In this document: positions 26,728 through 44,407 of the stretch, in pieces
How the letters are laid out: the number at the start of each line of letters is the position of its first letter
Numbering within the stretch: position 1 is the stretch's first letter
Assembly: GCA_965208665.1 (NCBI GenBank)
Contig: CBDBPH010000001.1
Coordinates: forward strand, 131,045-195,044
Source: Dehalococcoidia bacterium
GTDB lineage: Bacteria > Chloroflexota > Dehalococcoidia > Bin125
Length of the DNA: 64,000 nt
Reading direction: 5' to 3'
The notes under the pieces: generated by a model
What the model saw: only the letters and a program-made list of their open reading frames with translations
Told to the model about the DNA's origin: nothing
Database searches by the model: none
Position numbers and translations under genes: made by a program

Positions 26728-26753
26728 TTTTTCGACTCTGAGTGGAGCCAGAC

Positions 26754-28187: not shown

Positions 28188-31100
28188 GCTACATCGAACT
28201 GCATGCCAAGAGCTTCTGCTCCTTCGGGCTGGGCTCGTCTCACGTCCACGAGCTGCTGGCGCAAGCCGCCGAGTTCGGGATGCCCGCACTGGCACTGACC
28301 GATACCAACCTCTGCGGCGCGCTGGAGTTCGCGCGGCTGGCAACCAGCCTCGAGATCCAGCCGATCACGGGCGGCGAGCTGACTCTGACGGACGGCTCTC
28401 GTCTCGTCTTGCTGACCAAAACACGCACGGGCTACGCCAACCTCTCGCGCCTGTTCACGCTGGCCAACGAGGTCGACCGGCGCGATCCGAAACTCGATCC
28501 GGCGCTCCTGGCCGAGCACGCCGAAGGTCTGGTGCTGCTCAGCGGCGGACGCAATGGACCACTCTCGCGGCTCGTCCTGGCGGGTGATCGAGCCACAGCG
28601 CGCGAGCTGCTGGGGAGCTATCGGGAGTGGTACGGAGCCGATTCGGTCTACGTCGAGTTGCAGCGCAACTTCCTGCGCGGCGACCGCGAGCACAACCGCG
28701 AGCTCGTTTCGCTAGCCCGCGAGGTAGACGCGCGGCTGGTCGCCACAAACGACGTGCATTACCACGCGCCCGAGCGTCACCGCCTGCAACAGGCGCTGGT
28801 CGCAGCGAAACACAACACGACGCTGGACCAGGCGCTGCGCCATCTCCACCCGAATTGCCACTTGCACCTCAAGTCCGAGGCGGAGATGGCGCAGCTGTTC
28901 GCCGATCTGCCCGAAGCGCTCGACAACAGTCAACGAATCGCCGCGCAGTGCAGCTTCCGGCTCGACGCCGACCTCGGCTATACGCTGCCGCAGCCATTGG
29001 TGCCGGAGGGCTACTCGACGGAGAGCTACCTCAGGCGGCTCTGCGACGAAGCCGCGGTCCGACGTTACGGCTCGCTCAACCGGCAGGTTGCGGCGCGGCT
29101 GGACGAAGAGTTCGGCCTGATCAACCGGCACAACCTGGCCGGCTTCCTGCTGCTCTACCGCGAGATCGTGCGTCTGGCGCGGCGGATCATGGAGGAGCGC
29201 GGCCTGGTCGAGCCGGAGACGCCGCTCGAGCAGCAGCCACCCGGACGCGGGCGCGGCTCGTCCGTGGCGTTCCTGGTCGGGTACCTGATCGGGATCAGCC
29301 ACATCGATCCGCTGCGCTGGGACCTCACGCTCGAACGCTTCCTGCCAGAGGACATGACCTCGCTGCCCGATATCGATCTCGACTTCCCGCGCGGTCTGCG
29401 CGAGGAGCTGATCGAGCGGGTGCACACACACTTTGGCCGCGACTACGCCGTCCTGGCGGGCGCGATCTCGACCTACTCCATCAAGGGCATAATCCAGGAC
29501 CTGGGCAAAGCGCTGGATTTGCCGCCGGACGAGCTGCGCTCGTTGTCGGAGCAGCTGCACTCGCGCGGCGGAGGCGGGCTGCGCGAGCAGATGGAACAGC
29601 TGCCCACATTCAGAGACAAGGTGGACGCGTACGGCTGGCGCACCCTCGTCGAACTGGCGCCGCAGTTGATCGGCGCGCCGCGCGGACTGAGCCAGCATGT
29701 CGGCGGGATGATCCTGAGCAGTTCGCCAATCCCAGAGATGGTTCCGGTACGAGCCGGCGCGATCGCCGGCCGTTACATCATGGACTGGGACAAGGACAGC
29801 GTGGCCGACGCCAACTTCGCCAAGATCGATCTGCTCTCGCTGCCCGTCCTGGATCAACTCGATGAAGCGTTGGATCTGGTCGAGCAGCGGGAAGGCGAGC
29901 GTCCCGACCTGAGCCGGATCAGTCCCGAGGACGACGGCGTCTACGACCTGATCAACGAGGGCCGGTCGAAGGGTGTGTTCCTGCTCCAATCGCCGGCCCA
30001 GCTCAAGATGGCGCAACGGCTCAGGTCACGCAATCTGCGCGATCTGGCGTACCAGATTGCCCTGATCCGGCCGGGCGTCGGCACCCAGGGCAGCGCGGTG
30101 AGCCAGTTCGTCGAGCGCTACCGCCATGGTGCGGAATGGGAATACGATCATCCGCTCGAGCAACGCGCGCTGGAGCGTGGCTACGGCGTGATCGTGTGGC
30201 AGGAACAGGTCGTGCAGCTGATCATGGACGTCGCCGGGATGACCAGCGCCGAGGCCGATCAGGTGCGGCGCGCGTTTGCGAAAACGAACAACGAGCATCT
30301 GATCAAGATGCACCGCGAACACTTTCTCAAGGGTGCGCGAGCGAACGGCGTCGCGAGCGATATCTCGCAGCGCATCTTCGCCAAGATCAACGGACACTAC
30401 ATGTTCCCCGAGTCGCACTCGCACGCCTTCGCGATCACCGCCTTCCAGGCCGCCTGGCTGAAGCGCTACCACCCGTTGGAGTTTTTCGTCTCGTTGATCA
30501 ACAACCAGCCGATGGGCTTCTACCCGGTCGAGACGCTGAAAGAGGACGCGCGCAAGTTCGGCATTTTTTTCCTCAACCCCTGCGTCAACCGCAGCCGGGT
30601 GCGCTGCGCGCCCGAGGACGGCGCGGCCAGGCTGGGGTTGGGCATGATCAAGGACATCGGTCCCGAGTCGGCCAAGCTGATCGTGAAGGAGCGCGAGCTT
30701 CACGGCCCCTATTCGGATGCCGGCGAGCTCGTGCGCCGCACGGGCCTCAAGCCGCAGTCCGTCCGCTCGCTGGTCGAGGCAGGTGCGTTCGACGCGCTGA
30801 CGCCCAACCGCCGCGAGGCGCTCTGGGATGCGGGGCTCTCGATCCGGCCGGCGCGCCACGGGCAGCGCGCCTTCCCCGTCGCTACGGCAGACCCGCCACC
30901 AACGTTCAACGACTTCACGGACTTCGAGAAGATGGCCGGCGAGTACCGCGTTCTCGGGATCTATCCCCGCGGCCACGTGATGGAGTTCATCCGCCCCAGC
31001 CTCGACGCCAGCGTGCGTACGACCGCGGAGACGTATCAGGCTGATGACGGCGAGCGGATCCAGGTCGCGGGTTGGCCGATCGCACGGCAGCACCCACGAG

Positions 31101-31324
31101 GCGCAGACGGGATCGTGTTCGTCACGATCGAAGATGAGACCGGCGACGTGCAGGCCTTCATCTCGCCCAAGGTGTTCGCTCGCTCTCGGCGGGCGGTGGC
31201 GAATCAGATCATCCTGCTTACGGGCCGGATCGATCGTTGGGACGGCACAACCAACATCTTCGCCGAGCGGGTTGATGTCGTCGGCGCCGACGTCCGCCTA
31301 CCTTCCGCTCACGACTGGCATTGA
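28184..31324 (+). CDS. dnaE2: error-prone DNA polymerase III alpha-subunit paralogue DnaE2
   Basis: 1046 aa; N-terminal PHP domain MSYIELHAKSFCSFGLGSSHVHELLAQAAEFGMPALALTDTNLCGALEFARLA; polymerase core, OB-fold C-terminus; no tau-binding tail. Confidence 0.85.
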   Translation: MSYIELHAKSFCSFGLGSSHVHELLAQAAEFGMPALALTDTNLCGALEFARLATSLEIQPITGGELTLTDGSRLVLLTKTRTGYANLSRLFTLANEVDRRDPKLDPALLAEHAEGLVLLSGGRNGPLSRLVLAGDRATARELLGSYREWYGADSVYVELQRNFLRGDREHNRELVSLAREVDARLVATNDVHYHAPERHRLQQALVAAKHNTTLDQALRHLHPNCHLHLKSEAEMAQLFADLPEALDNSQRIAAQCSFRLDADLGYTLPQPLVPEGYSTESYLRRLCDEAAVRRYGSLNRQVAARLDEEFGLINRHNLAGFLLLYREIVRLARRIMEERGLVEPETPLEQQPPGRGRGSSVAFLVGYLIGISHIDPLRWDLTLERFLPEDMTSLPDIDLDFPRGLREELIERVHTHFGRDYAVLAGAISTYSIKGIIQDLGKALDLPPDELRSLSEQLHSRGGGGLREQMEQLPTFRDKVDAYGWRTLVELAPQLIGAPRGLSQHVGGMILSSSPIPEMVPVRAGAIAGRYIMDWDKDSVADANFAKIDLLSLPVLDQLDEALDLVEQREGERPDLSRISPEDDGVYDLINEGRSKGVFLLQSPAQLKMAQRLRSRNLRDLAYQIALIRPGVGTQGSAVSQFVERYRHGAEWEYDHPLEQRALERGYGVIVWQEQVVQLIMDVAGMTSAEADQVRRAFAKTNNEHLIKMHREHFLKGARANGVASDISQRIFAKINGHYMFPESHSHAFAITAFQAAWLKRYHPLEFFVSLINNQPMGFYPVETLKEDARKFGIFFLNPCVNRSRVRCAPEDGAARLGLGMIKDIGPESAKLIVKERELHGPYSDAGELVRRTGLKPQSVRSLVEAGAFDALTPNRREALWDAGLSIRPARHGQRAFPVATADPPPTFNDFTDFEKMAGEYRVLGIYPRGHVMEFIRPSLDASVRTTAETYQADDGERIQVAGWPIARQHPRGADGIVFVTIEDETGDVQAFISPKVFARSRRAVANQIILLTGRIDRWDGTTNIFAERVDVVGADVRLPSAHDWH

Positions 31325-31399
31325 TTCCGATCGAGGATCGCATCGTGCCGAACGGGACGCCTCAGGACAGTGAATTCGACGAATCGTTACCCTGATCCC

Positions 31400-32563
31400 A
31401 TGGACCGCGCATACTTCGACCATGCAGCGACGACGCCGTTGGAGCCTCGGGTGTTGGAGGCGATGGTTCCGGCCCTCCAGTACGGCTGGGGGAATCCTTC
31501 GGGAATTTATCGCGAAGCTCAGTATGCGGCCGGGCTGTTGGATCAGGCGCGGGATGACATCGCGGGGGTTCTGGCGTGTTCTGCCTCGGAGGTGGTGCTG
31601 ACGTCGGGCGGGACGGAGTCTGACAACCTGGCGATTCGGGGGGCGGCGCTGGCACGCCAAGCGGCGGGCCGGCACTTGATTACCCAGGCGACCGAGCATC
31701 ATGCGGTGCTGCATGTGATGGAACAGCTGGAGCATGAAGGCTTCGAGCTGACGGTGCTCGGGGTGGACGGCGAGGGCTTTGTCGAACCTGATGAGGTGGC
31801 ATCGGCGGTACGCGAGGACACGACGGTGGTCAGCATCATGCTGGCAAACAACGAGATCGGCGCGGTGCAGCCGATGGCGGAGATTACGCGTGCGGTGAAA
31901 GCGCGGAACCGGCGGACGATCGTGCACACCGATGCGGTGCAGGCGGCGGGGGCTGTCGATATCCGTCCCGACGTGCTGGGCGTCGACTTGATGTCGCTGA
32001 CGGCGCACAAGATTTACGGGCCGAAGGGCGCGGGGGCACTCTATGTACGGCGTCGGACGCCGCTACAGCCGCTGCAGTTGGGGGGCGGTCAGGAGGAGGA
32101 GCGCCGGGCGGGCACGGAGTCGGTGGCGCAGGCGGTCGGTCTGGCGAAGGCGCTGCAGTTGGCGGAGGAGGAGCGCCTGCAGCGGACTGGGCATACGTCG
32201 GAGTTGCGCAATCGTCTGTGGCGCGAGCTGAACGAGCGCGTGCATCCGATCAGGTTGAACGGTCCGTCGGACTGGTCGCGTCGGTTGGCGAACAATCTGA
32301 ATGTGAGTTTCCCCGGGGTCGAAGGCGAGAGCATCCTGTTGCAGCTCGATCTGGAGGGCTTCGCTGCTTCATCGGGCTCGGCATGTAGTACCGGGAGTAA
32401 CGAGCCGAGTCATGTGCTGACGGCACTCGGGCTCGATCCCGATACCGCGCATAGCACGCTGCGGTTGAGCCTGGGGCAGTCGAATACCGAGGAGCAGATC
32501 GACGGGATAGCGCGGACGATCGAGGAGATTACGGCGCGTCTGCGGGCGTTGTCGCCGGTCTAG
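31400..32563 (+). CDS. iscS: cysteine desulfurase (IscS/NifS family, class V aminotransferase)
   Basis: MDRAYFDHAATTP..., SGGTESDN, Lys in SLTAHKIYGPKG, active-site Cys loop SSGSACSTGS. Confidence 0.8.
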   Translation: MDRAYFDHAATTPLEPRVLEAMVPALQYGWGNPSGIYREAQYAAGLLDQARDDIAGVLACSASEVVLTSGGTESDNLAIRGAALARQAAGRHLITQATEHHAVLHVMEQLEHEGFELTVLGVDGEGFVEPDEVASAVREDTTVVSIMLANNEIGAVQPMAEITRAVKARNRRTIVHTDAVQAAGAVDIRPDVLGVDLMSLTAHKIYGPKGAGALYVRRRTPLQPLQLGGGQEEERRAGTESVAQAVGLAKALQLAEEERLQRTGHTSELRNRLWRELNERVHPIRLNGPSDWSRRLANNLNVSFPGVEGESILLQLDLEGFAASSGSACSTGSNEPSHVLTALGLDPDTAHSTLRLSLGQSNTEEQIDGIARTIEEITARLRALSPV

Positions 32564-32574
32564 GCGCGCGAGGA

Positions 32575-33699
32575 TCACGCAGTTGGGTCGAGTTGCGCAG
32601 ACCAGTCGATATCGGTTTCGAGGAATCGCCCGACTTCAGCGAACTCGGCTTCCAGTTGCGTTTGTGCGCTCTCTGACAATTCTTCGAAGCATGTGACCCT
32701 GACGGTCAGTCCGCGGGCACGGCGTTTGCGGTCCCAGGTTGCGACCAATCGGCCCTCGATCAAGACGCAGGGACGGAGCATCCCGCCGCCGGCGTTGACT
32801 CGCTTGAGGAGATGGTCGGGGACGTCGAGGTCTCGTTTGGCGTAGCCGACGATGTACGGATCGAATGGTCCCAACACTCGCAAGACGTCCTGTGGAGCGT
32901 CCAGCACATCGTTGAGCCGATCCAAGCCGTCCTGCGACATCCACATCGTCTGGCCATCGACGTCTACCTCGGTCAGAGCTTCCATCGCGGCTTGTAGACA
33001 TTGACGGGTGTCGGCAGCGGGCAGGCCGGACCACCAGCGGAAATCGGACTGGGTTGCCGGGCCGTAGGCGGCGAAGTAGCGGCGGGCGAGTTCGGCGCCG
33101 GGGTCCGGAGGTGGATCGGCCTGGGGCAGCCAGTCGTCGATCAGGACGTGGGTCGTGTCGCCGTTGCGTTCGGGACCGAAGCAGGTGACGCCCAGCAACG
33201 ACGTGGTACGGAGCAGGTGGGGTGTGGCCTGGCCGTCCGACGGAAGGCCCGCCGAACGGAAGGCGTCGCCAATCTCGGCTCGGGTCATTGGTCCCCTGGC
33301 TGCGAGTTCCTTGCGCAGGAACTTGAGCACCTTGGCATGGTCGTCGTCGGAGATGCCTAGGTCGGCTCGGCGTTTGAGCGCCTTGGCGTCGATGGCTTCG
33401 CCGAGCAGGTCGAGCATCCAGCGGAGATCCTCGGATGGGACGAGATGGAGGGTGCCGCGCATGAGCCAGTTGCGGACGATCGAGCGGTCGACGAGGCGGG
33501 CGTGATCGACGTTGGCGGCGGTCAGGCCCGTCGAGCGGGTGCCGACGCCGAGTTGCTCGCCGAGGCGGTCCTGGGCCTGGATGGCGGCGGCGGATCGGAC
33601 GGTGTCGGGCACGGCTGTGCCGCGCCGGGCGCTCAACAGCTGGGCGTGGAGGCGAAGGCGATGGGCCTCGCGGCGGGTGAGGGCGATTTCGGCGGGCAT
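32575..33699 (-). CDS. AlkZ/YcaQ-like winged-helix DNA glycosylase (DUF1006; interstrand-crosslink repair family)
   Basis: 374 aa; N-terminal AAIQAQD (Q-hydrophobic-Q catalytic motif as in AlkZ), HLVPSEDLRW, C-terminal winged-helix region. Confidence 0.6.
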   Translation of the reverse strand: MPAEIALTRREAHRLRLHAQLLSARRGTAVPDTVRSAAAIQAQDRLGEQLGVGTRSTGLTAANVDHARLVDRSIVRNWLMRGTLHLVPSEDLRWMLDLLGEAIDAKALKRRADLGISDDDHAKVLKFLRKELAARGPMTRAEIGDAFRSAGLPSDGQATPHLLRTTSLLGVTCFGPERNGDTTHVLIDDWLPQADPPPDPGAELARRYFAAYGPATQSDFRWWSGLPAADTRQCLQAAMEALTEVDVDGQTMWMSQDGLDRLNDVLDAPQDVLRVLGPFDPYIVGYAKRDLDVPDHLLKRVNAGGGMLRPCVLIEGRLVATWDRKRRARGLTVRVTCFEELSESAQTQLEAEFAEVGRFLETDIDWSAQLDPTA

Positions 33700-33713
33700 G
33701 AGTATCAGCCTAG

Positions 33714-34550
33714 GTGGGCGGAATTGGTAGGCTCACGCTCGTGACCAGTCCACCCAGTCCACCCAGTCCACGCGGCGATGGATGGCAGCCGGACCAGTAC
33801 GCCCGGTTCAAGGCGGAGCGGGAGCAGCCGTTCTACGACCTGCTGGACCTGGTAGAGCCGGTGCTCGCGGGGCGCGTGGTCGATCTGGGTTGCGGTACCG
33901 GCGCGCTGACTGTGGCGTTGCACACGAAGACGTTGGCGGACGAGACGGTCGGGCTGGACCGGTCGGAGGCGATGCTGGAGCAGAGCGCTGAGCACGCGGG
34001 TGGCGGTGTGCGGTTTGTGCGCGGCGACATTGCCGAGTTCAGCGGGTTGGATGGCGGCGGGCTGGATGTGGTGTTCGCCAACGCGTCGATCCAGTGGGTG
34101 CCGGACCATGCGTCGCTGTTTCCTCGGCTGGCCGCGACGCTGAGGCCGGGCGGGCAACTGGCGGTGCAGATGCCGGCCAACGAGGATCATCCGTCGCACG
34201 CGGTGGCTCGCGCGGTGGCGCAGGAGTCGCCGCACGCGGAGGCGCTGGGCGGGTTCGTGTATCGGCACTCGATCGAGTCGGCGGAGTGGTACGCGGAGCA
34301 GCTGGCGCGGCTCGGATTCGTCGAGCAGCACGTGCGCGTGCAGGTCTATCTGCACCGGTTGCCGGGGCCGGAGGACGTGATCGAGTGGGTCAAGGGGTCG
34401 CTGCTGACGGGCTATCGGAATCGGATGTCGGCGGAGGACTACGAGGCGTTCCTGGCGGACTATCGGGAGCGCCTGCTGTCGGTGTTGCCCGACGAGCGTC
34501 CGTTCCTCTACCCGTTCAAGCGGCTCCTGCTGTGGGGGCGGATGGGCTAG
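33714..34550 (+). CDS. tam: trans-aconitate 2-methyltransferase-like SAM methyltransferase
   Basis: WQPDQYARFKAEREQPFYDLL (Tam N-terminal signature), VVDLGCGTGALT motif I. True start may be the GTG at 33741 because the AlkZ-like gene starts at 33699 on the other strand. Confidence 0.65.
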   Translation: MGGIGRLTLVTSPPSPPSPRGDGWQPDQYARFKAEREQPFYDLLDLVEPVLAGRVVDLGCGTGALTVALHTKTLADETVGLDRSEAMLEQSAEHAGGGVRFVRGDIAEFSGLDGGGLDVVFANASIQWVPDHASLFPRLAATLRPGGQLAVQMPANEDHPSHAVARAVAQESPHAEALGGFVYRHSIESAEWYAEQLARLGFVEQHVRVQVYLHRLPGPEDVIEWVKGSLLTGYRNRMSAEDYEAFLADYRERLLSVLPDERPFLYPFKRLLLWGRMG

Positions 34551-34564
34551 GCGGTGGTCAGGGT

Positions 34565-34639
34565 GGTTGGGTTTGGTCGAGGCCCTCACCCTAGCCCTCT
34601 CCCTCGGGGAGAGGGGACTGGAGATGGTTGGGTTTGGTC
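34565..34639. repeat. REP-like palindromic element, copy D, flanked by a 14-bp direct repeat GGTTGGGTTTGGTC
   Basis: ggttgggtttggtc-gaggccctcaccctagccctctccctcggggagaggggactggagat-ggttgggtttggtc; immediately after the tam stop; left border of a lower-GC accessory segment. Confidence 0.8.
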
Positions 34640-34777
34640 AGGTTCGGTAGGCGTGTTATGTCGAGTGGGATTGCGAATTCCCTGTGTTTTGCTGGGTTTC
34701 GTGATCGGTGGTAGGTCGTCAGGTGAGAATTTTTCCTGGGCGCTGGGAAACGAAAAAACGGGTTCGGGTGCTCAGAC

Positions 34778-34807
34778 TTGTCCAGATCTGTCCAGATTCG
34801 TCCAGAT
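34778..34807. repeat. 10-nt x3 tandem repeat (TTGTCCAGAT/CTGTCCAGAT/TCGTCCAGAT) in a ~400-bp lower-GC non-coding stretch
   Basis: Read directly from the sequence; lies 3' of the MTase gene. Confidence 0.7.
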
Positions 34808-35014
34808 GCGGCTCGATTTTGCCAGTTTTGTTCCAGGTGAGTCCGCGCGAGTTCAGGAGCGTCCGGGTTGGCGGCTGGATGCTGACTGGCTGGATATTGG
34901 CGGGGCACGTGGGTTGCCTCCCGGCTGCGTGAGCGCATATGTTCTGATTGTATTCGATTTCGGCATCCTGTGGGGACGCGGGGCGAACCGGGCTTGTGGT
35001 CGGATTGACAGGGA

Positions 35015-36658
35015 CTACGCGTCGAGGGATTGCTGGACGCCTTGCTGGCGCCGCCGGCGTGGGGCTTTGCGGAAGGTCTGGGGGGCGGCGAAGCGGGGGT
35101 AGTCGGGCTGGTCGCCGTTGAGGAGCTGCTCGATGGTGAGGATCTGGACCTTGGGGTACCTCCGGGTCTCGAGTCCCGATGATTCGTAGAAGCCGGCGGC
35201 GATCGCTTCCTGGCGCATCGGCTTGGTCGGTTCTTCAAGGGTGATGAAGATGCCGATGGCGGCGTCCTCGCGCTCCATGTCGCCCTTGAGCGTGGCGACC
35301 ATGCCGCGGTTGACGTGACCGCTCTTGACCTGGACGATGATGCGCCTGGCCTTGCCGGAGTTGTCGTCGAAGAAGTTGATGTAGCCGTCAATGCCGGAGT
35401 CGGCGCCCTTCTTGCCGGTGGCGGGCCGGGCGTCGACGAGGCCGAGCGCCCAGTACTCGAACTGGTAGCGGCCGTCATGCTCGGACTCGGTGGCGAGCGC
35501 GCGGGCACTGGCGACATCCTCTGGGAGCCCGACGATCTGGTAGGCGGACAGTTCGGTGCCGAACGTGTCGTGCAGGCGGTGCTTCATCAATGAGATTGAC
35601 ACGTGAGTGAGATCAATGCCGATCCAGCGCCGCTTGAGCCGCTCGGCCACGGCGACGGCGGTGCCGCAGCCGCAGAAGGGATCGAGGACGATGTCGCCCT
35701 CGTTGCTGCTGGCATCGATGATGCGTTCGAGCAGAGCTTCAGGCTTCTGTGTCGGGTAGCCGAGGCGTTCCTTATGGGCACCAGAAAGCGACGGAATGTC
35801 GCTCCAGATGTCTTGAACTGGCACACCCTTCGAATCTTCCAAGTACAGCTTCTGTCGCGGGTATCCGGTCCTGGAATAGTAGAGCCGGCCTTCGTCATGA
35901 AGCCGCTGCATGGTTTCCTTGCTGTATCTCCATGCGCGAGTGTGACCATTCCAGTCGAAGACGGGATTGCCCTTCTCCGCGCCACCCGGACCAGTCAGAG
36001 GTGTGGTAGTAAAGCGCTTACCGGTCTCCTCATCGATGTGCCTGTAGGTCGATTTGACGTAGCTTTCATCCAGCGGGACAAAACCTTGGTTCCATATGAC
36101 CGAGTCACCCTTGTTATAGAGCAACAGAATGTCGTGGACTCGTCCAAAGTGCCTGGAGCCTTGCCCGACATCGTTATGAGCGCCGTAACGCCGCCAAGTG
36201 ACTTCGTTGGTGAACATGTCGTGTCCGAAGACCGCATCCATCACCAGCTTCAGATAGTGGCTCGCGGTCGGGTCGCAGTGGAGGTAGATGCTTCCGGTTG
36301 GTTTGAGGACGCGGTGGAGTTCGGCGAGGCGCTGGGCCATCATCGTGAGGTAGGCCATCATGTCGTTCTGGCCGAGGAACTCGCGCATCGCCTGGAGCAG
36401 CTTGCCCAGCTTGTCGGGGCCCTCGGTGACAACCTCCTGGTAGGCGCGCTCGGAGTCGAGGGTCCAGTGCCAGGTGTCGTCGAAGGCGGTGATCTGTGCC
36501 GCGGAGTCCTCGCCGGATCGCTCCTTGAAGAGGACGTTGTAGGTGGCGTTGGAGTTGAAGGGCGGGTCGAGGTAGATGAGGTCGACGGACTCGGAAGGGA
36601 TGTGTTCGCGGAGGACGGAGAGGTTGTCGCCGAAGTAGAGCTGGTTGGTCCAGGTCAT
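35015..36658 (-). CDS. DNA methyltransferase (N6-adenine/N4-cytosine, DPPF-type) fused to a C-terminal Mrr-like PD-(D/E)xK nuclease domain
   Basis: SVDLIYLDPPFNSN (motif IV DPPF), C-terminal SAM-binding motif VLDPFCGCGT. Then GADSGIDGYINFF...RRIIVQVKSG (Mrr_cat-type D...QxK). GGAGG RBS upstream of ATG at 36658. Confidence 0.75.
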   Translation of the reverse strand: MTWTNQLYFGDNLSVLREHIPSESVDLIYLDPPFNSNATYNVLFKERSGEDSAAQITAFDDTWHWTLDSERAYQEVVTEGPDKLGKLLQAMREFLGQNDMMAYLTMMAQRLAELHRVLKPTGSIYLHCDPTASHYLKLVMDAVFGHDMFTNEVTWRRYGAHNDVGQGSRHFGRVHDILLLYNKGDSVIWNQGFVPLDESYVKSTYRHIDEETGKRFTTTPLTGPGGAEKGNPVFDWNGHTRAWRYSKETMQRLHDEGRLYYSRTGYPRQKLYLEDSKGVPVQDIWSDIPSLSGAHKERLGYPTQKPEALLERIIDASSNEGDIVLDPFCGCGTAVAVAERLKRRWIGIDLTHVSISLMKHRLHDTFGTELSAYQIVGLPEDVASARALATESEHDGRYQFEYWALGLVDARPATGKKGADSGIDGYINFFDDNSGKARRIIVQVKSGHVNRGMVATLKGDMEREDAAIGIFITLEEPTKPMRQEAIAAGFYESSGLETRRYPKVQILTIEQLLNGDQPDYPRFAAPQTFRKAPRRRRQQGVQQSLDA

Positions 36659-36807
36659 TTGGGGCCTCCGGTGGTCAGGGTAAGGGCAGTCGGGCGTTAG
36701 CAGAGCCGGTCCCGGTTCAAGCGGTGAGTAGCACGTTCCGGGAGCCAAGCATCGACCATCCGTTCGTAGATAGTAGACTAGCGACAGAGACGAGGAGGCT
36801 GACAACG

Positions 36808-37665
36808 ATGCCTGGTGAACTCATTGCGGGTGCTGCCGCAGGCTTGACGAACCCGGCAACTGCGTTGATCGAAAGGGTGTCCGATGCAGTCGGCGGCATC
36901 GCGAGGCCTGCTCAGATTCGTCGTGTCGCTAGGGCTGAGGCCGATGCGAAGGTGATCATGGCCGAAGCGGACATCAAGATCACCGAGATCCAGCAGCGCG
37001 CAGCGCGCCGCTTCATTGAGGAGGAAACGAAGAACCAGATCAACATAGAGAACATTACCCATCAGGCGATACCTCACCTCAATGAAAATGCAGAGCCCGA
37101 GAAGATCGAAGACGACTTTCTCAGGAACTTCTTCGATAAGTCGCGGCTGGTGTCGGACGAACAGATGCAGGAGATCTGGGCCCGCATACTCGCCGGCGAG
37201 GCGAACAACCCGGGAACCTTCGCAAGGAAGACGATCAACATCGTGGCCGATATGGACAAGTCCGACGCCGACCGATTCGCTATCCTCCTCAGTTTTTCCT
37301 GGGTCGTCGGCGGCAACCCGGTGGCCATTGTCTACAACGACGACAGCTATTTCGATGAGAGGGGGATCGATCTAGAGATGTTGGCTGATCAGGAGTCGCT
37401 TGGTCTGATCTCGACGAATTCTCTTCCGTACGGGTTCTACCTCAGCGGGGTATCACTCCGTGCTGCTTACTTCGATAAGTCTGCTCAAATCACTCTGTCA
37501 AACAAAGACAAGAACTTTCTGAGCACGGGCAATGTGTTTCTTACTCCGGCTGGCCGACAGCTCGCATCAATGTGTCGCGTGAGACCGATCGAGGGTTTCT
37601 TTGACTTCATGTGCAGAAGGTGGGAAGAGGACTCGAGCGTAGAGTCGGTCAGGACACTCAACTGA
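36808..37665 (+). CDS. DUF2806-like protein (N-terminal coiled coil), noticeably lower GC than surroundings
   Basis: SDEQMQEIWARILAGEANNPGTFARKTINIVADMDKSDADRF resembles the conserved DUF2806 core; GAGGAGG RBS before ATG at 36808. Confidence 0.45.
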   Translation: MPGELIAGAAAGLTNPATALIERVSDAVGGIARPAQIRRVARAEADAKVIMAEADIKITEIQQRAARRFIEEETKNQINIENITHQAIPHLNENAEPEKIEDDFLRNFFDKSRLVSDEQMQEIWARILAGEANNPGTFARKTINIVADMDKSDADRFAILLSFSWVVGGNPVAIVYNDDSYFDERGIDLEMLADQESLGLISTNSLPYGFYLSGVSLRAAYFDKSAQITLSNKDKNFLSTGNVFLTPAGRQLASMCRVRPIEGFFDFMCRRWEEDSSVESVRTLN

Positions 37666-37685
37666 GTGGCTGAGTGAGGGGAGGG

Positions 37686-37727
37686 GGCCCGTCCCCGAGC
37701 GAGTCGGGGAACGGACGGGGGCTCTGC
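37686..37727 (+). terminator. putative terminator hairpin after DUF2806-like gene
   Basis: Imperfect GC-rich inverted repeat GGGGGCCCGTCCCCGA-GCGAGT-CGGGGAACGGACGGGGGC 20 nt after the stop. Confidence 0.3.
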
Positions 37728-37836
37728 TTGAGGCTTCGATGAGGGGGACGATGTCGTCGAAGTTGGTGGTGGCTCGAACGGTGTCGAGGTCGTAGAAGCG
37801 CTGTAGGGTAGTCGGCTGATGCTTTTGGAGCGCTGA

Positions 37837-38076
37837 GTGAAGACGACCGATCACTTCTGGAAGGCGCGCTTTCTGATGCCCGACCGCGGGCGCATCCAAC
37901 TGCATTGGATTCAGCGAGTAGTGGATCGGCCGCTCCGACGTGAAGTGCAGTCGGATGGCCGAATCCGATGCTGGGGGCGTGTACCGGAACTGGGTGGACG
38001 GGCGCTCAGAGTGGTAATCTTGGCCGACGGCGAGACGGTCCACACTGCGTTCGTCGACGGAAGATTCAGGCCATGA
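37837..38076 (+). CDS. DUF4258-family toxin (type II TA)
   Basis: MKTTDHFWKARFLMPDRGRI... matches the T-DH-x-x-AR-x-x-x-RGI opening of DUF4258; 79 aa; stop overlaps the start of the downstream DUF2283 gene. Confidence 0.55.
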   Translation: MKTTDHFWKARFLMPDRGRIQLHWIQRVVDRPLRREVQSDGRIRCWGRVPELGGRALRVVILADGETVHTAFVDGRFRP

Positions 38077-38270
38077 AGCGGTTCTACTCCAAAGACACCG
38101 ACACGCTCATGTTCGTCTTTTCCGACGAGCGCGTTACTGATTATGTTGATCTGGACTTCCAAACGCTGCTCGAACTGGACTGCGACGGCAATCCCGTTGC
38201 CCTGACCATCGAGCACGCCCGCGAACGCAAGGTGCTGCCAGAGGTCGATTCTGAACGGATTCCCGCCTGA
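38073..38270 (+). CDS. DUF2283-family antitoxin
   Basis: MKRFYSKDTDTLMFVFSDERVTDYVDLDFQTLLELDCDGNPVALTIEHARE is the classic DUF2283 pattern; ATGA overlap with the toxin. Confidence 0.6.
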   Translation: MKRFYSKDTDTLMFVFSDERVTDYVDLDFQTLLELDCDGNPVALTIEHARERKVLPEVDSERIPA

Positions 38271-38720
38271 TTGCGGAGACGATCGATGTTGCGAGCGGTG
38301 GCGGAGCCGGCGGCGATTGAGCGCCTGGCGAGCCAGATCAAGGAGTCGCCGATGGATGAGGTGCGAATGCCGGCGCAAGTCGCCAATCCCGATGCGCCCG
38401 ACCGCTACTGGGAGGCGGATTTCCTGCTCGACAGCGGCGCGAGCGTTTCGGTCGTGCCGGTCGACGTCCTCGAGCGGCTCGGCGTTAGTCCGCGTCGCCT
38501 GGGCCGCTCCTATCTCGCCGATGAGTCGTCGATCGTGCGGCGCGTGGGACTGGCGACGTTTACCGTCGCGGGCGAGACGGAAGACGCGAGCGTCATGTTT
38601 GGCGAGGAGGGCACGGAACCGATCCTCGGCCTGACGGTGCTGCAATCGATGGGGTTTCTCGTTGATCCGCTGCGTGAGCGTCTGCTGCCTCGTTCGGCGC
38701 TCGCGGAGGCGTTGGATTAG
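38271..38720 (+). CDS. retropepsin-like (clan AA) aspartic protease
   Basis: FLLDSGASVSVV carries the D-S-G-A catalytic motif; ~145 aa single-domain bacterial retropepsin-like protein. Confidence 0.55.
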   Translation: MRRRSMLRAVAEPAAIERLASQIKESPMDEVRMPAQVANPDAPDRYWEADFLLDSGASVSVVPVDVLERLGVSPRRLGRSYLADESSIVRRVGLATFTVAGETEDASVMFGEEGTEPILGLTVLQSMGFLVDPLRERLLPRSALAEALD

Positions 38721-38744
38721 GGATCTTCCCGGGACTGGGGTGCT

Positions 38745-39110
38745 GTGGAGGCCCTCACCCCAGCCCTCTCCCTCGGGGAGAGGGGGTCAGAAGGGGCGGG
38801 ATTCCGTAGCGGGGTCGGGAATGAGGGTGAGAGGTGGGTACTGTGGGCGGGTGCCCCCCTCTGTCTCTACGAGACATCTCCCCCCGCTGGCGCGGGGGGA
38901 GAGAAGAAGGGGCGGGTCTCCGGGTTCGAGCGCGGTGGGAGAGGGGAAGGGGCTGGTCCCCGCTCGGGGGTGGGGAACGGGAGGATTCTGCCGTGGGAGG
39001 GGCCCTCACCCCCCGCCTTCGCGGGGGCAGGCTCTAACCCTCTCCCTCGGGGAGAGGGGATTCGCGAGCGGGTCGGGGAGCTGGGAGGGCTCGTGTATCC
39101 TGAGGCGGAT
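38745..39110. repeat. complex array: two full REP-like units (38749-38788, 39000-39062) plus degenerate ~40-45-nt tandem GGGG-rich sub-repeats and additional CCCCGC-N-GCGGGG hairpins
   Basis: Repeated gaaggggc(g/t)gg...cgggg...gggga blocks; the shadow ORF 38745..39116 translates to repetitive GERG/GEGAG peptides. Confidence 0.75.
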
Positions 39111-39127
39111 GGGTGAATGGAGTTGGG

Positions 39128-39835
39128 ATGGTTTCTCCGACGTTTGACACTGGGGGGGCTCCGATCCCCCTGTTGGACCCGGTGACGGATGTTGAGGACG
39201 AGCTTCGGTCTCAACTTCTGATCTCGACGGTGGACAAGGTGTTTGGCTGGGCTCGGCGGTCGTCTCTGTGGCCGGCGATGTTTGGGTTGGCCTGCTGCGC
39301 GATCGAGATGATCGCGACGGCGAACGCTCGCTACGACCTGGCCCGGTTTGGGGCCGAGGTGTTCCGGGCGTCGCCTCGACAGGCGGACCTGATGATCGTG
39401 GCCGGCACGGTGACCTGGAAGATGGCGCCTCCGGTTCGGCGGATCTACCTGCAGATGGCCGAGCCGAAGTGGGTGATCTCGATGGGCTCGTGCTCGAACA
39501 TCGGCGGACCGTTCGCGCACGGCTACTCGACGCTGCCGGGTGTGAACAACATCGTTCCGGTCGACGTCTACGTGCCTGGTTGCCCGCCGCGGCCGGAGTC
39601 GTTGCTGGCCGGTCTGATGCTGCTGCAGCAGGTGATCGACGAGGAGCACGCGAACGGGCATCGCAAGCGTCGACCGGAGCCGACGGGCGACTTCTCGCGG
39701 ATGCTGCCCGAGGGCGACCCGATCCGGCAGGAGCTGGAATCGCTGTTCCCGCCGTACCTGACGGCGGACGGTCAGCCTCGTGACAAGTGGACGGGCGCGC
39801 TGCCGCACGACCAGAACTTCTTCACGAGCCGCTAG
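39128..39835 (+). CDS. nuoB: NADH-quinone oxidoreductase subunit B (NuoB/Nqo6) with ~60-aa C-terminal extension
   Basis: [16 protein letters not shown]...[22 protein letters not shown]...WVISMGSCS...[14 protein letters not shown]: all four [4Fe-4S] N2 cysteine motifs. Confidence 0.8.
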
Positions 39836-39885
39836 ACGATAGAGCGGGCAAGGCCGCTAGTCGGTTGAGCGGGCAAAGCCGCTAG
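39836..39885. repeat. 25-nt x2 tandem repeat, each unit an AGCGG-N6-CCGCT palindrome ending in TAG
   Basis: acgatagagcgggcaaggccgctag / tcggttgagcgggcaaagccgctag; the nuoB stop context (gagccgctag) is a third partial copy exactly 25 nt upstream. Confidence 0.7.
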
Positions 39886-39897
39886 AGAGACGGGCAC

Positions 39898-40383
39898 ATG
39901 GTCTTCGGCAAGGGCATCGCCAAGGGACTGATGACCGTGGTCAAGCACGTGCGCAAGGCACCGGTGACGGTGCAGTTCCCGGAGGAAGAGCGCAACATCC
40001 CGCCGCGGGCGCGGACGAACCTGGTCTGGTTCGTGGAGCGCTGCACGGGCTGCTCGACGTGCGCGCAGGCCTGTCCCGACGGTTGCATCCTGGTCGACAC
40101 GGAGCCTCGGGAAGACGGCTCGTTCCTGGTCAACCGGTACGAGATCGATTTCCGGCTGTGCATGTACTGCGGCCTATGCGCCGAGGCGTGTCCGTATGAG
40201 GCGATCCAGGTGGGCGGGTCATACACGAACGTCGTGACGAATCCGAATCGTCTGTACAAGGACAAGGGCGACCTGATCGAGCTGGCCAACGAGTATCTGG
40301 AGCAGCACGACTGGGTCTATCCGAACGGTCAGCAGGCGGTGCAGCAGACAGTGCATCCTGAGGAGCGTCGGCAGCACCACTAG
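39898..40383 (+). CDS. nuoI: NADH-quinone oxidoreductase subunit I (NuoI/Nqo9), 2x[4Fe-4S] ferredoxin
   Basis: Two CxxCxxCxxxCP motifs (CTGCSTCAQACP, CMYCGLCAEACP); N-terminus KAPVTVQFPEE like Nqo9. Confidence 0.8.
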   Translation: MVFGKGIAKGLMTVVKHVRKAPVTVQFPEEERNIPPRARTNLVWFVERCTGCSTCAQACPDGCILVDTEPREDGSFLVNRYEIDFRLCMYCGLCAEACPYEAIQVGGSYTNVVTNPNRLYKDKGDLIELANEYLEQHDWVYPNGQQAVQQTVHPEERRQHH

Positions 40384-40395
40384 GGCGTCGGCAGC

Positions 40396-42621
40396 CTAGG
40401 AATCGCAGACATTCGGCGGGATCATAATCTCCAAGTCCGAGATGTTCTGATGCTTCATCTTTAGCGGGATCGCATCTCCTGGGTCGGTAGAAAAGCCATT
40501 CTCTCCAAAGTAGACGTAGCAGAACGGTGTAGAAACCATCAGGATGTGTTCTCCTGGACGGTCGACGGATAGCGCAAAGGAACCGTCGGCTTGAACCTTT
40601 GGATTTGAAGTGAACCACGAGTAGTAGATTCCAACGAACGATTCGCTAGCAGGTTCGCCGCGCTCATCGAGCACTCTTCCGCTAATCTGACCGGCGCAGG
40701 CGCCGACGGGAAGCCGCAGTTCCAACTCTCGGCCGGCCAGGTACTGGGCCTCGAAGAGTGTGTCGGCTGAGACCTCGCTCGCGAGTCCTGTGCCGTCGAA
40801 CGCATAGATGCAATCCTCGAACCTGACTCGCAAGCGGTACTTGTCCGCCTCGGGAAGTCTCAGACTGAACGTCCCATCGGAGCGAGTCCATTGGTATGTC
40901 GTACCTTCATCTCTTCTGGCCGATACAGACAGCGCGCTGACCGGAGCGCCCTGCGCATTCACTACTCTCCCAGTGATCCGGTGGTGGCAGAGATCCACGG
41001 GCAGTTGGACCGATATGCTCAAATCTTCATTGCCGACCGCGATTGTCTCAGCCGATCGCTGCTTCAGCATGAGTCCGGACTGGGCGTAGTAGACATTGCA
41101 ACCCTCAACCGTGACCAGTAACAGGTAGCCACCCGGCTCAACAAACGCGCTGACCGTGCCGTCCTGCCAGGTACGGGTCCGAATCGCAGTTTGCTCACTC
41201 GAGCGTGGATTCAGGGTCAATCTCACGTCGGCCAGGGATTCTCCATCCGAGCCAAGCATCGTCATGCTGACCAAGCTTTTTCGAGTCGCGCCCTGGCTCC
41301 TCGCCTCTGCGCGATGGCATGTGGCACTGAGGTCGGCCACGCCCAGGGTTTCGGCCACCAGGTGAGCTAATGACGGCACGAACTGCGACAGCTCGATTCG
41401 GTTGCTGATGCCGGAGTAGCTCTGGCCACGTAGGCCGAACCAGTAGAGGACGCCCTCGGCCCAGTACTCGGCTGAGTTGGTCATCGCGTATGTTCCCTCC
41501 AGCCACCCGGCCTCTCGAGCCTGCCGGTAAGACTGAACGAGGGCGCTGCGGAAGCTGCCTGAGCTGGATCCTCGGCTAATGGCGAAATCGATTGCGTGGG
41601 CGAACTCGTGAACGGCGACGTCATAGCCGTTGTAGCGATCGCCCTCGTAACAGAGGAGGTTTTCCTCGGGGACCAGCGTCGGGGTGTAGCCGTTCGGACC
41701 AAGACCTCGAGGTCCTCCTGGACCATGTCCCTCTAGTTCAATTCGATCTCGATACTGCCGATAAGGAGCCAGATCAAAGGTCTGTTCGGACTCGCCGACG
41801 ACGACGATGTGTTCGCGTCTCCTGATCAGCGTCTCGCGGACATCGGGACGGTTGACGAGTAGTTCGTCGACGATAGCGGCGGCGCGGAAGAGCGCCTCGT
41901 CGGCGACGTTTTCCGTGGCCATGATCGCCAGTCCGTCGGCGTCTAGGTACTTATCGAATGTGGCGTACCAGCGCAGATGGTCTGGCGGCGGTCCGAGCGG
42001 ATAGAGCGCGCGATCGCCGCTCGGTTGCAACCAGCTCGCTTCGGTCGTGTTGAAGACCCAGAGGCCGTCGCCGCGGCGCAGCTGGTGTTGGGGTCCGGGG
42101 GCTGGACGGGAGCCAGCCTGATAGAGCGCGAGTTCGCCACTATCGGGAGTGGAGTAGAGGGCCTGCGTGAATGACGCGCCGATGGACCGGACTGCCAGGT
42201 CGATCGGCGTGCCGCTCGGGCCAGTCCAGGCGACGAGGTTTGGCCCCGGCTTGAGCGCGACCCACTCGCCGTCGGCGACCGTCGGTTGATGCCACTCGAC
42301 CGGCTGCTCGCCGGCGATGCGGACGATCAGGCCCATTCCGGGCTCGATCGCGCTGAGGGTCGCAGAAAATCCGGGGGTGGAGAAGCGGTAACGGGCGTCG
42401 TCGGCGTCCCAGGTGTAGATAAGTTCCGCGTTCGGGATCTGGTCGAACAGCGCTTGCGGCGTGGTTGCGAAGCCGACCCAGCCGATCAGATTGTCCCCGG
42501 GGTGAAGCGTTCTGCTTGCCGGCGGAGACTCTTCACCAGCGACGAGTATCTGGGTCAGCAGCAGGGTGGCGAGCAGCGCGGAGAGGATAGTCGCGAGGCG
42601 TACGAGCCGACGCTGGCGCAT
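40396..42621 (-). CDS. secreted zinc metalloprotease with MtfA(M90)/ATLF-like gluzincin domain and three carboxypeptidase-regulatory-like beta-sandwich repeats
   Basis: Signal peptide MRQRRLVRLATILSALLATLLL; HEFAHAIDF (HExxH) with downstream NSAEYWAEG (third zinc ligand Glu as in MtfA/anthrax-LF-like fold). C-terminal repeats ITGRVVNAQGAPV / ISGRVLDERGEPA. ATG at 42621. Confidence 0.6.
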   Translation of the reverse strand: MRQRRLVRLATILSALLATLLLTQILVAGEESPPASRTLHPGDNLIGWVGFATTPQALFDQIPNAELIYTWDADDARYRFSTPGFSATLSAIEPGMGLIVRIAGEQPVEWHQPTVADGEWVALKPGPNLVAWTGPSGTPIDLAVRSIGASFTQALYSTPDSGELALYQAGSRPAPGPQHQLRRGDGLWVFNTTEASWLQPSGDRALYPLGPPPDHLRWYATFDKYLDADGLAIMATENVADEALFRAAAIVDELLVNRPDVRETLIRRREHIVVVGESEQTFDLAPYRQYRDRIELEGHGPGGPRGLGPNGYTPTLVPEENLLCYEGDRYNGYDVAVHEFAHAIDFAISRGSSSGSFRSALVQSYRQAREAGWLEGTYAMTNSAEYWAEGVLYWFGLRGQSYSGISNRIELSQFVPSLAHLVAETLGVADLSATCHRAEARSQGATRKSLVSMTMLGSDGESLADVRLTLNPRSSEQTAIRTRTWQDGTVSAFVEPGGYLLLVTVEGCNVYYAQSGLMLKQRSAETIAVGNEDLSISVQLPVDLCHHRITGRVVNAQGAPVSALSVSARRDEGTTYQWTRSDGTFSLRLPEADKYRLRVRFEDCIYAFDGTGLASEVSADTLFEAQYLAGRELELRLPVGACAGQISGRVLDERGEPASESFVGIYYSWFTSNPKVQADGSFALSVDRPGEHILMVSTPFCYVYFGENGFSTDPGDAIPLKMKHQNISDLEIMIPPNVCDS

Positions 42622-42664
42622 TATCGGGGCTCCAGAGTTCGTCCTGGCGTCCACTGGTCGTGCG

Positions 42665-43549
42665 TCACGACGGCTTTGGCAAACAGACGATTCCCCACGA
42701 GGCGGACTCGCCGGCGGTGATCGACAGTGTCGGGGTGATCCCAATTCCGTGCTCGCCGGTCAGCTCATACTCGACTTCGCCGGACCAGGTCGCCGCTGAG
42801 ACATCGACGAGGGTCAGTTCGCGGAGCGCAACCTTGAACTGCGTCTCGCCGCCGTCATCGGCGAAGTTGCCGGTCACGTCGATTCGACAGGTGTATACGT
42901 CGGGAATCGCGGAAATCATCGCGGTTCCAGAACCCCGACCGGAGGAAGAGGAGAGGTTGCCCCGAGGCTCATCGTTCAATGTCACGGTGAGCTGGATCGT
43001 GCTGCGAGAGCCTCGGTCAGCACGACCGAGTTCGGCGCGGCGGTCGCACTTGAGCGACCACTCGCTCGCCGGCGCCGCTTGCAACCTGACGTCGACCAGG
43101 CTGGTTGCCGTCTGCGCACTGCCGGCCAAGAGCAGGTCGAAGTTCGTCGTCCAGTCCGATTGCGTCGTGTCGACGAGCGCCGGATTCAGCGGCTCACGGC
43201 TGACGAAGTGGATCCGAAACGGAGCCGCCTGTTCACCCTGCACGTTGCCTTGCAGATCGATGCTGCATCGGTACAGGCCGGCCGCAAGCTCATGCTCGAC
43301 CTGGGCATCACCGGAGCCGCTCATCTGGAACGACTCGGGGGCGGTGACGGCGGGAGCGTCTCTCTGGGCGTCCGTGGTGAGGTTGGCCAACTCGGACTGC
43401 TGTTGTACTTCAGCGATGGGTGCACTACGGCGTTCGACCGACGGTTCGGGTTGCGTCAGCGGTTCCGAGCGTTCCCGGGGCGTGGCACAGGCGACCAGCG
43501 TGGCGGCGGAGAGCGCGAAGATGGCGAGCGCGATCTTTGTGAGCTTCAC
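42665..43549 (-). CDS. lipoprotein with internal tandem duplication, unknown function
   Basis: Lipobox LVAC; two related modules (GLYRCSIDLQGNVQGE... and DVYTCRIDVTGNFADDGGE...); 43 nt upstream of the metalloprotease gene on the same strand. Confidence 0.5.
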   Translation of the reverse strand: MKLTKIALAIFALSAATLVACATPRERSEPLTQPEPSVERRSAPIAEVQQQSELANLTTDAQRDAPAVTAPESFQMSGSGDAQVEHELAAGLYRCSIDLQGNVQGEQAAPFRIHFVSREPLNPALVDTTQSDWTTNFDLLLAGSAQTATSLVDVRLQAAPASEWSLKCDRRAELGRADRGSRSTIQLTVTLNDEPRGNLSSSSGRGSGTAMISAIPDVYTCRIDVTGNFADDGGETQFKVALRELTLVDVSAATWSGEVEYELTGEHGIGITPTLSITAGESASWGIVCLPKPS

Positions 43550-44294: not shown

Positions 44295-44407
44295 GCTCGC
44301 TCTCCGTTGTCAGGATCGTACACGGCGTGGCAGCTGGTCGAATCGGGGACACCATGCCTACTGATAGACTGCGGCTTGGTTCTGCGTGCCTTGAGCGGGG
44401 AGACGTT

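Follow-up and report, generated by a model that had tools for sequence, protein, structure and literature searches.

Defence hotspots between core genes combine constant flanks with a variable content rich in restriction-modification (R-M), abortive infection (Abi) and toxin-antitoxin (TA) genes, an atypical composition and the occurrence of empty sites. The same features are found at the locus described here, which lies between the genes tam and nuoB in a 64-kb stretch of DNA from a Dehalococcoidia bacterium of the Chloroflexota (contig CBDBPH010000001.1, positions 131,045 to 195,044; referred to below as the window). The 4.56-kb segment between the two genes contains five genes, identified by open reading frame (ORF) listing and profile searches. 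They code for a methyltransferase (MTase) fused to an Mrr-family nuclease domain (MTase-Mrr), a DUF2806 protein, a small protein of 79 aa paired with a DUF2283 protein, and a retropepsin-like aspartic protease. In contrast to the described hotspots, the slot is without an integrase, a tRNA gene or a recognisable mobile-element backbone, and its content appears to be replaced piecemeal in gene-sized units. For a related symbiont group, an enrichment of R-M and TA genes and lateral transfer have been reported (PMC8163846). The names of the metagenome-assembled genomes compared here (RHO, IRC and SB bins) point to sponge metagenomes and, judged by these names, the host lineage is probably sponge-associated.

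The mod genes exist as alleles with conserved ends and a swapped central target-recognition domain (TRD), and MTase-Mrr resembles them in both respects. It also shares with the Type III Mod proteins of EcoP15I and H. pylori, its top structural matches, a β-class MTase with a DPPF motif and a central TRD. In contrast to Type III Mod, however, it has no Res partner, and an Mrr-family nuclease is instead fused to its C-terminus. Nuclease and MTase are likewise joined in one chain in the Type ISP enzyme LlaGI and in Type IIC/IIG enzymes such as MmeI and BpuSI, but these are γ-class enzymes with an N-terminal nuclease and are far larger than MTase-Mrr with its 547 aa. In LlaGI, a single-polypeptide R-M enzyme, the residues equivalent to D420, D424 and K445 of MTase-Mrr are essential for cleavage (PMC2790908). 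The FE, D-x-G-x-D and Q-x-K motifs of MTase-Mrr agree with those needed for cleavage in LlaGI, whereas the superfamily 2 (SF2) helicase motor of the latter is missing. The DUF2806 gene has a described counterpart in Belisama, a single DUF2806 gene from the chromosomal integron of Vibrio cholerae. Described in 2024, this gene acts through abortive infection to protect V. cholerae, and its over-expression is toxic (bioRxiv 10.1101/2024.07.02.601686). The closest described relatives of the two remaining parts are the DUF4258/DUF2283 type II TA-like pairs and the bacterial retropepsin-like clan AA proteases (Asp_protease_2; TIGR03698-like).

A variable slot and its mosaic filling

A scan for Tam in species-representative genomes yielded approximately 30 loci in uncultured relatives among the Chloroflexota/Dehalococcoidia, and the synteny of the relatives' loci was determined by tblastn with the window proteins (L with three digits denotes related or homolog-bearing loci that were compared, and P with four digits database proteins). 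The NifS-AlkZ-Tam...NuoB-NuoI frame is kept in 28 genome loci and in L155 (29 in total), with NuoB 92–99% identical in the 28 loci. The distance between Tam and NuoB ranges from 66 bp in L023 to 5175 bp in L012; the slot is empty in some relatives (66–127 bp), and its content changes between genomes. A full Type III Mod and Res pair is found in L001 (PADLOC REase_III, 7e-180), the Mod protein of which differs from the window MTase-Mrr (24% identity), an MTase-HNH fusion in L011, a Ser/Thr kinase with a match to PD-T4-6 models (2e-38) in L014, ApeA with a HEPN_Apea domain in L155, and a DUF6602 protein with a match to NucC-like PD-DExK effectors (6e-28) in L012. BrnT/BrnA, PIN and HigBA modules are also among the relatives' cargo, and genes for Uma2 endonuclease-like proteins occur in 13 of the 28 genome loci, with fragments in L010 and L022. 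Of ten hotspot proteins from the relatives that were run against PADLOC, six had no match.

Since the flanks are conserved and the cargo changes from genome to genome, this is a variable slot for defence and TA genes, with accessory, mosaic DNA as its filling in the window. A preliminary description of this DNA, made from the sequence alone, had proposed an accessory, defence-like segment and a comparison of orthologous tam...nuoB loci, and this proposal is borne out by the 29 syntenic loci, in which the cargo differs and some sites are empty. The five genes as a fixed companion of tam and nuoB, which would have spoken for core status, are not seen in the relatives. Seen as a whole, the locus is a further example of the known defence/TA hotspots between core genes and brings no new principle. 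What it does offer is one slot that is empty or differently filled in about 30 genomes, a natural series for the study of defence-gene turnover without an integrase. Dated steps in this series are the truncation of higA by the DUF2806 insertion and the insertion of repetitive extragenic palindromic (REP) elements with target duplication.

The limits of the slot are best seen in comparison with L001, the closest relative (93% amino acid identity for Tam and 99% for NuoB). Nucleotide homology to L001 ends at 34889 and restarts at about 39066, and the cargo in between is wholly replaced, with REP-related patches at 38857–38980. The variable segment relative to L001 thus extends from about 34890 to about 38850–39065 and does not start at the tam stop codon. 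On its left, 34625–34889 (approximately 265 bp) is 89% identical to positions 10833–11098 of L001, has no Rfam match and contains no conserved ORF. On its right, homology to L001, L002, L003 and L018 restarts at 39066–39090, and the motif CTCGTGTATCCTGA, which is present in all eight relatives' gap sequences inspected by eye, marks where the variable slot ends on this side.

We consider it likely that at least four independent modules make up the present, mosaic filling in this genome of an integrase-free, high-turnover defence/TA slot. In the sequence of events that we propose, the DUF2806 gene, a relative of Belisama, would be the latest arrival, with an insertion that removed higB and most of higA. 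The 79-aa protein and DUF2283 would form a third, toxin-antitoxin-like module beside MTase-Mrr and the DUF2806 gene, the retropepsin-like protease a fourth that is a recurrent resident beside nuoB, and mobile, genome-wide REP elements would have been inserted after the genes. The biochemical activities, and any anti-phage effect, are what we infer for all of these genes.

The preliminary description had taken the five genes as one system in a combination not described before. That they form a single integrated, undescribed defence system is in our view very improbable. The genes are adjacent and compact, the DUF2283 gene and the protease ORF follow each other without spacing, and the order of MTase-Mrr, the pair and the protease recurs in L018, with an unrelated gene of 298 aa between MTase-Mrr and the pair, there in the slot between MTHFR and NifS. 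Against this, DUF2806 adjoins MTase-Mrr only in this window, and the modules are solitary elsewhere. A higA relic lies between the DUF2806 gene and the TA pair, and GC content is unequal between the modules. In 80 metagenome loci with MTase-Mrr homologs of 52–74% identity, the other four genes are absent within 6 kb, so that none of these distant loci holds any partner. Clustering of the ORFs within 3.5 kb of MTase-Mrr gave a largest neighbour family present in 5 of approximately 50 loci, by which a conserved partner of MTase-Mrr was ruled out. The co-occurrence search that the preliminary description had suggested did not find the five-gene set elsewhere, and MTase-Mrr, the pair and the protease are partially shared in a few close relatives. 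Nor can the claim of an undescribed combination be upheld for its DUF2806 part, as single-gene defence by Belisama had already been described.

Some observations nevertheless weigh against fully independent modules with a role in defence. Parts of the L018-type block are retained in L003, L012, L020 and L028, a different gene of approximately 300–340 aa abuts the MTase 5′ end in five of the seven clade MTase-Mrr loci, and in the window segment only the MTase was matched by PADLOC (2023), the DUF2806 protein, the 79-aa ORF, DUF2283 and the protease being without a match. The recurrent order in the clade and the similar size of the gene at the MTase 5′ end make some functional coupling possible. 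We attribute the partial linkage in the clade to common descent, from a block subject to ongoing erosion and refilling, and not to functional dependence.

The divergent intergenic region between MTase-Mrr and DUF2806 bears on the same question. A conserved TAGAGT-like hexamer precedes the MTase-Mrr ATG by 7–13 nt in the window (within 36659–36675) and in L003, L011, L012, L019 and L020; upstream of it, similarity among the MTase-Mrr loci ceases. Such a layout would fit an MTase-Mrr transcript that is very short or has no leader. Homology among the loci halts approximately 15 nt upstream of the ATG, and the adjoining position is where replacement happens. It could be argued from this halt, and from the unrelated genes of 298–339 aa in the five clade loci, for a two-gene system in which MTase-Mrr stays constant and the effector at its 5′ end is swapped (DUF2806 in the window, the NucC-like DUF6602 protein in L012, and proteins of 298–338 aa in L003, L018 and L011). 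We think this improbable, since L019 has higA and L020 only small ORFs at this position, L064, the plasmid copies and the 80 metagenome loci have no recurrent neighbour, and DUF2806 suffices alone in Vibrio.

The MTase-Mrr fusion protein

The components of the locus are of known kinds (R-M-like, Belisama-like, TA-like and clan AA protease), and MTase-Mrr is the only part with a reasonable chance of new biology. Its start at 36658 is fixed by the identical protein P0001, and the first TTG of the ORF was discounted. The protein matches the Pfam families N6_N4_Mtase (9e-45), Mrr_cat (3e-8) and NA-iREase1 (1e-9), all above the gathering scores, and MTase_III of PADLOC (7e-42). The order of its motifs, with motif IV (DPPF) ahead of motif I (FCGCGT), is that of the β-class, and a PD-(D/E)xK domain of the Mrr family follows at the C-terminus. 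In an alignment of 63 homologs, DPPF (31–34) and FCGCGT (328–333) are invariant, as are F400-E401, D420-x-G422-x-D424 and Q443-x-K445, which correspond to Mrr motifs I–III. Foldseek places EcoP15I Mod first, with H. pylori Mod also among the top matches, and after Type III Mod the sequence and fold matches in the PDB are CcrM, M.BceJIV and RsrI; the phmmer matches in the PDB are 6k0w and 4zcf. The Foldseek match to MspJI is weak (rank 43, E 7.5e-3, TM 0.18).

The target-recognition region covers approximately aa 145–300 (about 35759–36226) between the two MTase half-motifs. In L003, L018, L012, L019, L020 and L011 it is 32–43% identical to that of the window protein, compared with 85–95% for the flanks, and a gap in the blastn alignments matches it (35773–36224). 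The more distant proteins P0013, P0049, P0065 and P0090 retain the window-type TRD at 70–78% identity. By these alignments, the TRD is a cassette that has been exchanged between close relatives on a conserved backbone, as is expected for R-M specificity under diversifying selection.

The window segment lacks a Res gene, coding for an SF2 helicase-nuclease, and no such gene recurs beside MTase-Mrr in the 80 loci; the chain of 547 aa contains MTase and Mrr domains only, without an SF2 motor. At the sequence level, MTase motifs and intact nuclease residues occur in one chain, as in combined (Type IIC-like) R-M enzymes, but the β-class order, the central TRD and the C-terminal nuclease do not follow the Type IIG layout of MmeI and BpuSI. 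The predicted architecture fits none of Type III, Type ISP and MmeI-type IIG. A comparison with Haloferax HVO_A0006 was set aside, as it concerns the N-terminal nucleases of Type IIG enzymes and is irrelevant to a C-terminal MTase-Mrr layout.

The invariant motifs, together with the exchange of the TRD, suggest that MTase-Mrr is probably a self-contained, single-chain R-M enzyme. In such an enzyme, the MTase and the TRD would mark host sites, the nuclease domain would cut unmarked DNA, and new specificities would arise from swaps of the TRD cassette. Several points count against this assignment: the NA-iREase1 model, which bears the name 'inactive', scores higher for the nuclease domain than Mrr_cat (38.6 versus 34.2 bits), the AlphaFold2 model of the protein is moderate (pLDDT 71.5), and RefSeq labels the plasmid homologs merely as DNA methyltransferases.

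These homologs, single full-length proteins of 43–47% identity on Mesorhizobium and Microbacterium plasmids, show with others that the gene stands alone. More than 120 clusters have homologs of at least 70% identity, and the 74%-identical MTase-Mrr of L064 is solitary amid P450 and dehydrogenase (short-chain dehydrogenase/reductase, SDR) genes. The solitary occurrence without a recurrent neighbour, the very high conservation of the backbone across these clusters and the slight advantage of the 'inactive' model would all suit an orphan MTase in which the nuclease fold serves only for DNA binding or oligomerisation, with an epigenetic role or as a shield from foreign restriction. We regard an orphan MTase as unlikely, though worth serious attention: all three Mrr catalytic motifs are invariant, the exchange of TRD cassettes indicates the diversifying specificity typical of R-M, and the gene is found in defence hotspots and on plasmids beside TA modules. 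A self-contained R-M enzyme agrees better with these three observations. Tentatively, we hypothesize that MTase-Mrr may represent a large, uncharacterised class of minimal single-polypeptide R-M enzymes, free of helicase and partner, that diversify by exchange of the central TRD. The family is abundant, solitary and labelled only as 'methyltransferase', yet it combines a conserved Mrr site with shuffled recognition regions. Should its members be self-contained R-M enzymes, many 'orphan' methyltransferases in genome surveys would be misclassified, and a compact new enzyme architecture would be added to those known.

The companion modules

The start of the DUF2806 gene is most likely at 36808 (Met29), as all close homologs align from residue 29. 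The Pfam model is matched with 108.4 bits (cut-off 24.5), whereas TIGR03899 reaches just 76 of the 155.65 bits of its cut-off. The family comprises 6500 representative clusters with a typical length of approximately 290 aa, the best of which is 61% identical, and homologs of 34–39% identity are located on conjugative plasmids. None was found in the 30 related loci, including the seven other clade MTase-Mrr loci, or in the 80 metagenome MTase-Mrr loci. The likeness to Belisama consists in a DUF2806 domain over most of a protein of approximately 290 aa, so that kinship rests on the shared domain family, and in a putatively stand-alone gene that is carried as mobile cargo and has homologs on conjugative plasmids. 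In contrast to Belisama, the window gene belongs to another phylum and is not an integron cassette. By analogy, we propose that it may act as a stand-alone Abi-type defence gene.

Downstream of it, on the opposite strand, is the 3′ relic of a higA antitoxin gene. L011 codes for an intact HigA (HTH_3, 4.8e-10), L018 has a longer higA relic, and in L019 higA is located immediately upstream of MTase-Mrr. The relic, the GC content of the DUF2806 gene (0.553, the lowest gene of the segment) and the arrangement in L019 indicate that DUF2806 arrived between MTase-Mrr and higBA, deleting higB and most of higA. ORFs of 163 and 168 aa in L014 and L019 overlap higA-like minus-strand sequence with their 5′ ends and are suspected antisense artefacts.

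The 79-aa ORF is a real gene, as its MKTT start is shared with L003 and L018, and it is followed by DUF2283 wherever it was compared, the pair being present in L003 and L018 too. The start of the DUF2283 gene overlaps its stop by 4 nt (38073–38076). In eight contigs (L147–L154), a 63%-identical relative and DUF2283 follow each other with the same 4-nt overlap between two CoA-transferase genes. The two small genes, the overlap, the second position of DUF2283 and the pairing in unrelated contexts are as in DUF4258/DUF2283 pairs, and by this type II layout the two genes appear to form a toxin-antitoxin-like pair. Contrary to those pairs, the first gene of the window pair reaches no Pfam model. 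The domain calls of the preliminary description were confirmed above the Pfam gathering scores for four of the five genes, DUF2283 included, whereas its DUF4258 call was not: the 79-aa ORF has no Pfam match at E≤10, to DUF4258 or any other model. Among 842 homologs of the 79-aa protein, the 120 listed are all free of precomputed Pfam domains, and one homolog (63% identity) bears the NCBI name DUF4258.

The start of the protease gene at 38286 is set by the identical 144-aa protein P0241. Its Asp_protease_2 score of 35.6 bits exceeds the cut-off of 24.3, and as in related bacterial proteases a single domain of approximately 144 aa contains an invariant D-[ST]-G-[AS] motif. D49 and G51 of D49-[ST]-G51 are invariant in 14 homologs, and all homologs keep D-[ST]-G-[AS] together with an ILG motif at the C-terminus. 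The window protein differs from TIGR03698-like proteases in staying under the cut-off of that model (42.4 versus 57.35 bits) and in belonging to a narrow family, for which a word-indexed search gave 26 homologs. In the window, L014 and L155, no further gene lies between the protease gene and nuoB; in L157, a 73%-identical protease is solitary beside an ABC transporter. No evidence for a tie between the protease and defence was found other than its location.

Repeats, layout and neighbouring genes

The segment is bounded by a 464-bp non-coding stretch between tam and the 3′ end of the MTase-Mrr gene and by a spacer of 392 bp, rich in repeats, between the protease gene and nuoB (Table 1). Its 1-kb windows (GC 0.565–0.61) are the GC minimum of the 64 kb (mean 0.650, sd 0.022). 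Five genes in about 4.5 kb, a lower-GC gene (DUF2806) and a lower-GC non-coding stretch (0.586 on the left) had all been recognised in the preliminary description, as had the lack of mobility genes: profile searches of the segment proteins gave no integrase or transposase domain, and the 64-kb window has no tRNA gene.

Table 1. Features of the tam-nuoB locus, with positions in the window
Feature	Position	Strand	Basis or remark
NifS-like cysteine desulfurase	31370-32563	+	ORF listing and profile searches
AlkZ-like glycosylase	32575-33699	-	ORF listing and profile searches
Tam-like methyltransferase (tam)	33714-34550	+	NCBIfam trans-aconitate MTase 1e-54, under family cut-off
Non-coding frame downstream of tam	34551-34889	.	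Common to window and L001 despite different cargo; holds REP1 insertion and 10-bp array
Left REP1 palindromic element, 46 bp	34579-34624	+	Repeat family D1/D14
Tandem array, three TGTCCAGAT-type 10-bp units	34779-34807	+	Tandem Repeats Finder, period 10, 2.9 copies
MTase-Mrr fusion, 547 aa	35015-36658	-	Pfam, PADLOC, NCBIfam; P0001 identical over 547 aa
Divergent intergenic region, MTase-Mrr/DUF2806	36659-36807	.	Homology among MTase-Mrr loci halts ~15 nt upstream of ATG
DUF2806 protein	36808-37665	+	Pfam DUF2806 6e-31; ORF opens GTG 36724
higA antitoxin 3′ relic, ~28 codons, ...TLQRFYDLDTVRATTNFDDIVPLIEASS	37726-37809	-	Aligns with intact L011 HigA
79-aa conserved small protein, candidate toxin	37837-38076	+	No Pfam match; 77-84% identical in L003, L018
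DUF2283 protein, 65 aa, candidate antitoxin	38073-38270	+	Pfam DUF2283 4e-6, 27.4 bits vs cut-off 23
Retropepsin-like clan AA aspartic protease, 144 aa	38286-38720	+	Asp_protease_2 1.5e-8; ORF opens TTG 38271
Insertion vs L018, 112 bp, with right REP1 (38738-38785)	38727-38838	+	Pairwise alignment; repeat family D1
REP2, second palindrome type, core GAGATGTCTCGTAGAGACAGAGGGGGG	38854-38900	.	One copy in window
Third REP1 copy	39012-39059	+	Repeat search
nuoB-upstream motif CTCGTGTATCCTGA	39090-39103	+	Present in all eight relatives' gap sequences inspected by eye
NuoB	39113-39835	+	ORF listing and profile searches
NuoI	39898-40383	+	ORF listing and profile searches

The palindromes are dispersed, genome-wide REP-like elements that were inserted secondarily, and they are not island termini. 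The 15-bp sequence TGGTTGGGTTTGGTC is exactly duplicated on the two sides of the left REP1 element, at 34564–34578 and 34625–34639, and L001 has a single copy of this target and no left REP1 element. The duplication suggests present or past mobility of the REP1 family, with duplication of the target on insertion. The REP1 core CCCTCTCCCTCGGGGAGAGGG occurs at five window sites within 3 mismatches, compared with 0 expected, three of them in the segment (cores at 34595–34615, 38764–38784 and 39038–39058) and two outside it (4305 and 23563), and a sixth, more diverged copy is located at 26092. In 586 kb of relatives' DNA, 15 copies are found at non-homologous intergenic sites. REP2 also occurs in the 'empty' gaps of L006 and L009, after the L018 protease gene and dispersed elsewhere. 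Palindromes near both edges, as noted in the preliminary description, are indeed present, but their role as markers of the island edges did not hold, as they are secondary insertions relative to L001 and L018.

A decayed mobile element with terminal repeats, such as the remnant of a prophage, an integrative and conjugative element or a transposon, would account for the low GC content, the accessory character of the segment and the 48-nt direct repeats that lie near its two ends and are 90% identical. Such an origin is hardly credible here: the segment has no integrase, transposase or tRNA, its repeats belong to the genome-wide REP family of secondary insertions, and the relatives' cargo has been replaced piecemeal and not as a single element. 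The 48-nt repeats were ruled out as the limits of a mobile unit by comparison with L001 and L018. An integrase-type island is likewise not indicated, with no integrase or recombinase, no tRNA in 64 kb and no element-specific att-type repeats.

No Rfam family was found within 33500–40500, and a promoter and terminator scan gave no signal exceeding that of shuffled sequences. The antisense ORFs 37567–38043 and 34591–35517 have no Pfam match at E≤10 and are regarded as non-genes. Arrays of the TGTCCAGAT type, with 3–5 copies, recur in the relatives in several unrelated intergenic regions, among them the one upstream of NifS (L002 15372–15437, L005 14820–14893, L007, L008, L010, L016 and L020), and could be regulator-binding arrays or another small repeat family.

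In the gap between MTHFR and NifS, the window has a cassette of imuB-like (IMS domain) and dnaE2-like (error-prone Pol III alpha) genes (26742–31324) that is shared only with L001 and L003. MTase-Mrr blocks are found instead in this gap in L018, L011 and L028, and its alternating content makes it a second variable slot, approximately 4 kb from the tam-nuoB slot. Paralogs of a Uma2-family putative endonuclease (32–79% identity; window 43602–44294) fill several intergenic slots of relatives, namely between NifS and AlkZ, between Tam and NuoB, and before the molybdopterin oxidoreductase gene, and their behaviour resembles that of a multi-copy selfish or TA-like family.

On the other side of the slot, nuoB and nuoI form an isolated pair outside any nuo operon (39090–40383), near the gene for a NuoG/formate-dehydrogenase-like molybdopterin oxidoreductase (44234–47032). 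At 40396–42744, a 782-aa CarboxypepD_reg protein is encoded in the second low-GC patch of the window. Since it is 49–62% identical in relatives whose NuoI is 93–99% identical, and is located in this patch, it appears to be fast-evolving or under replacement.

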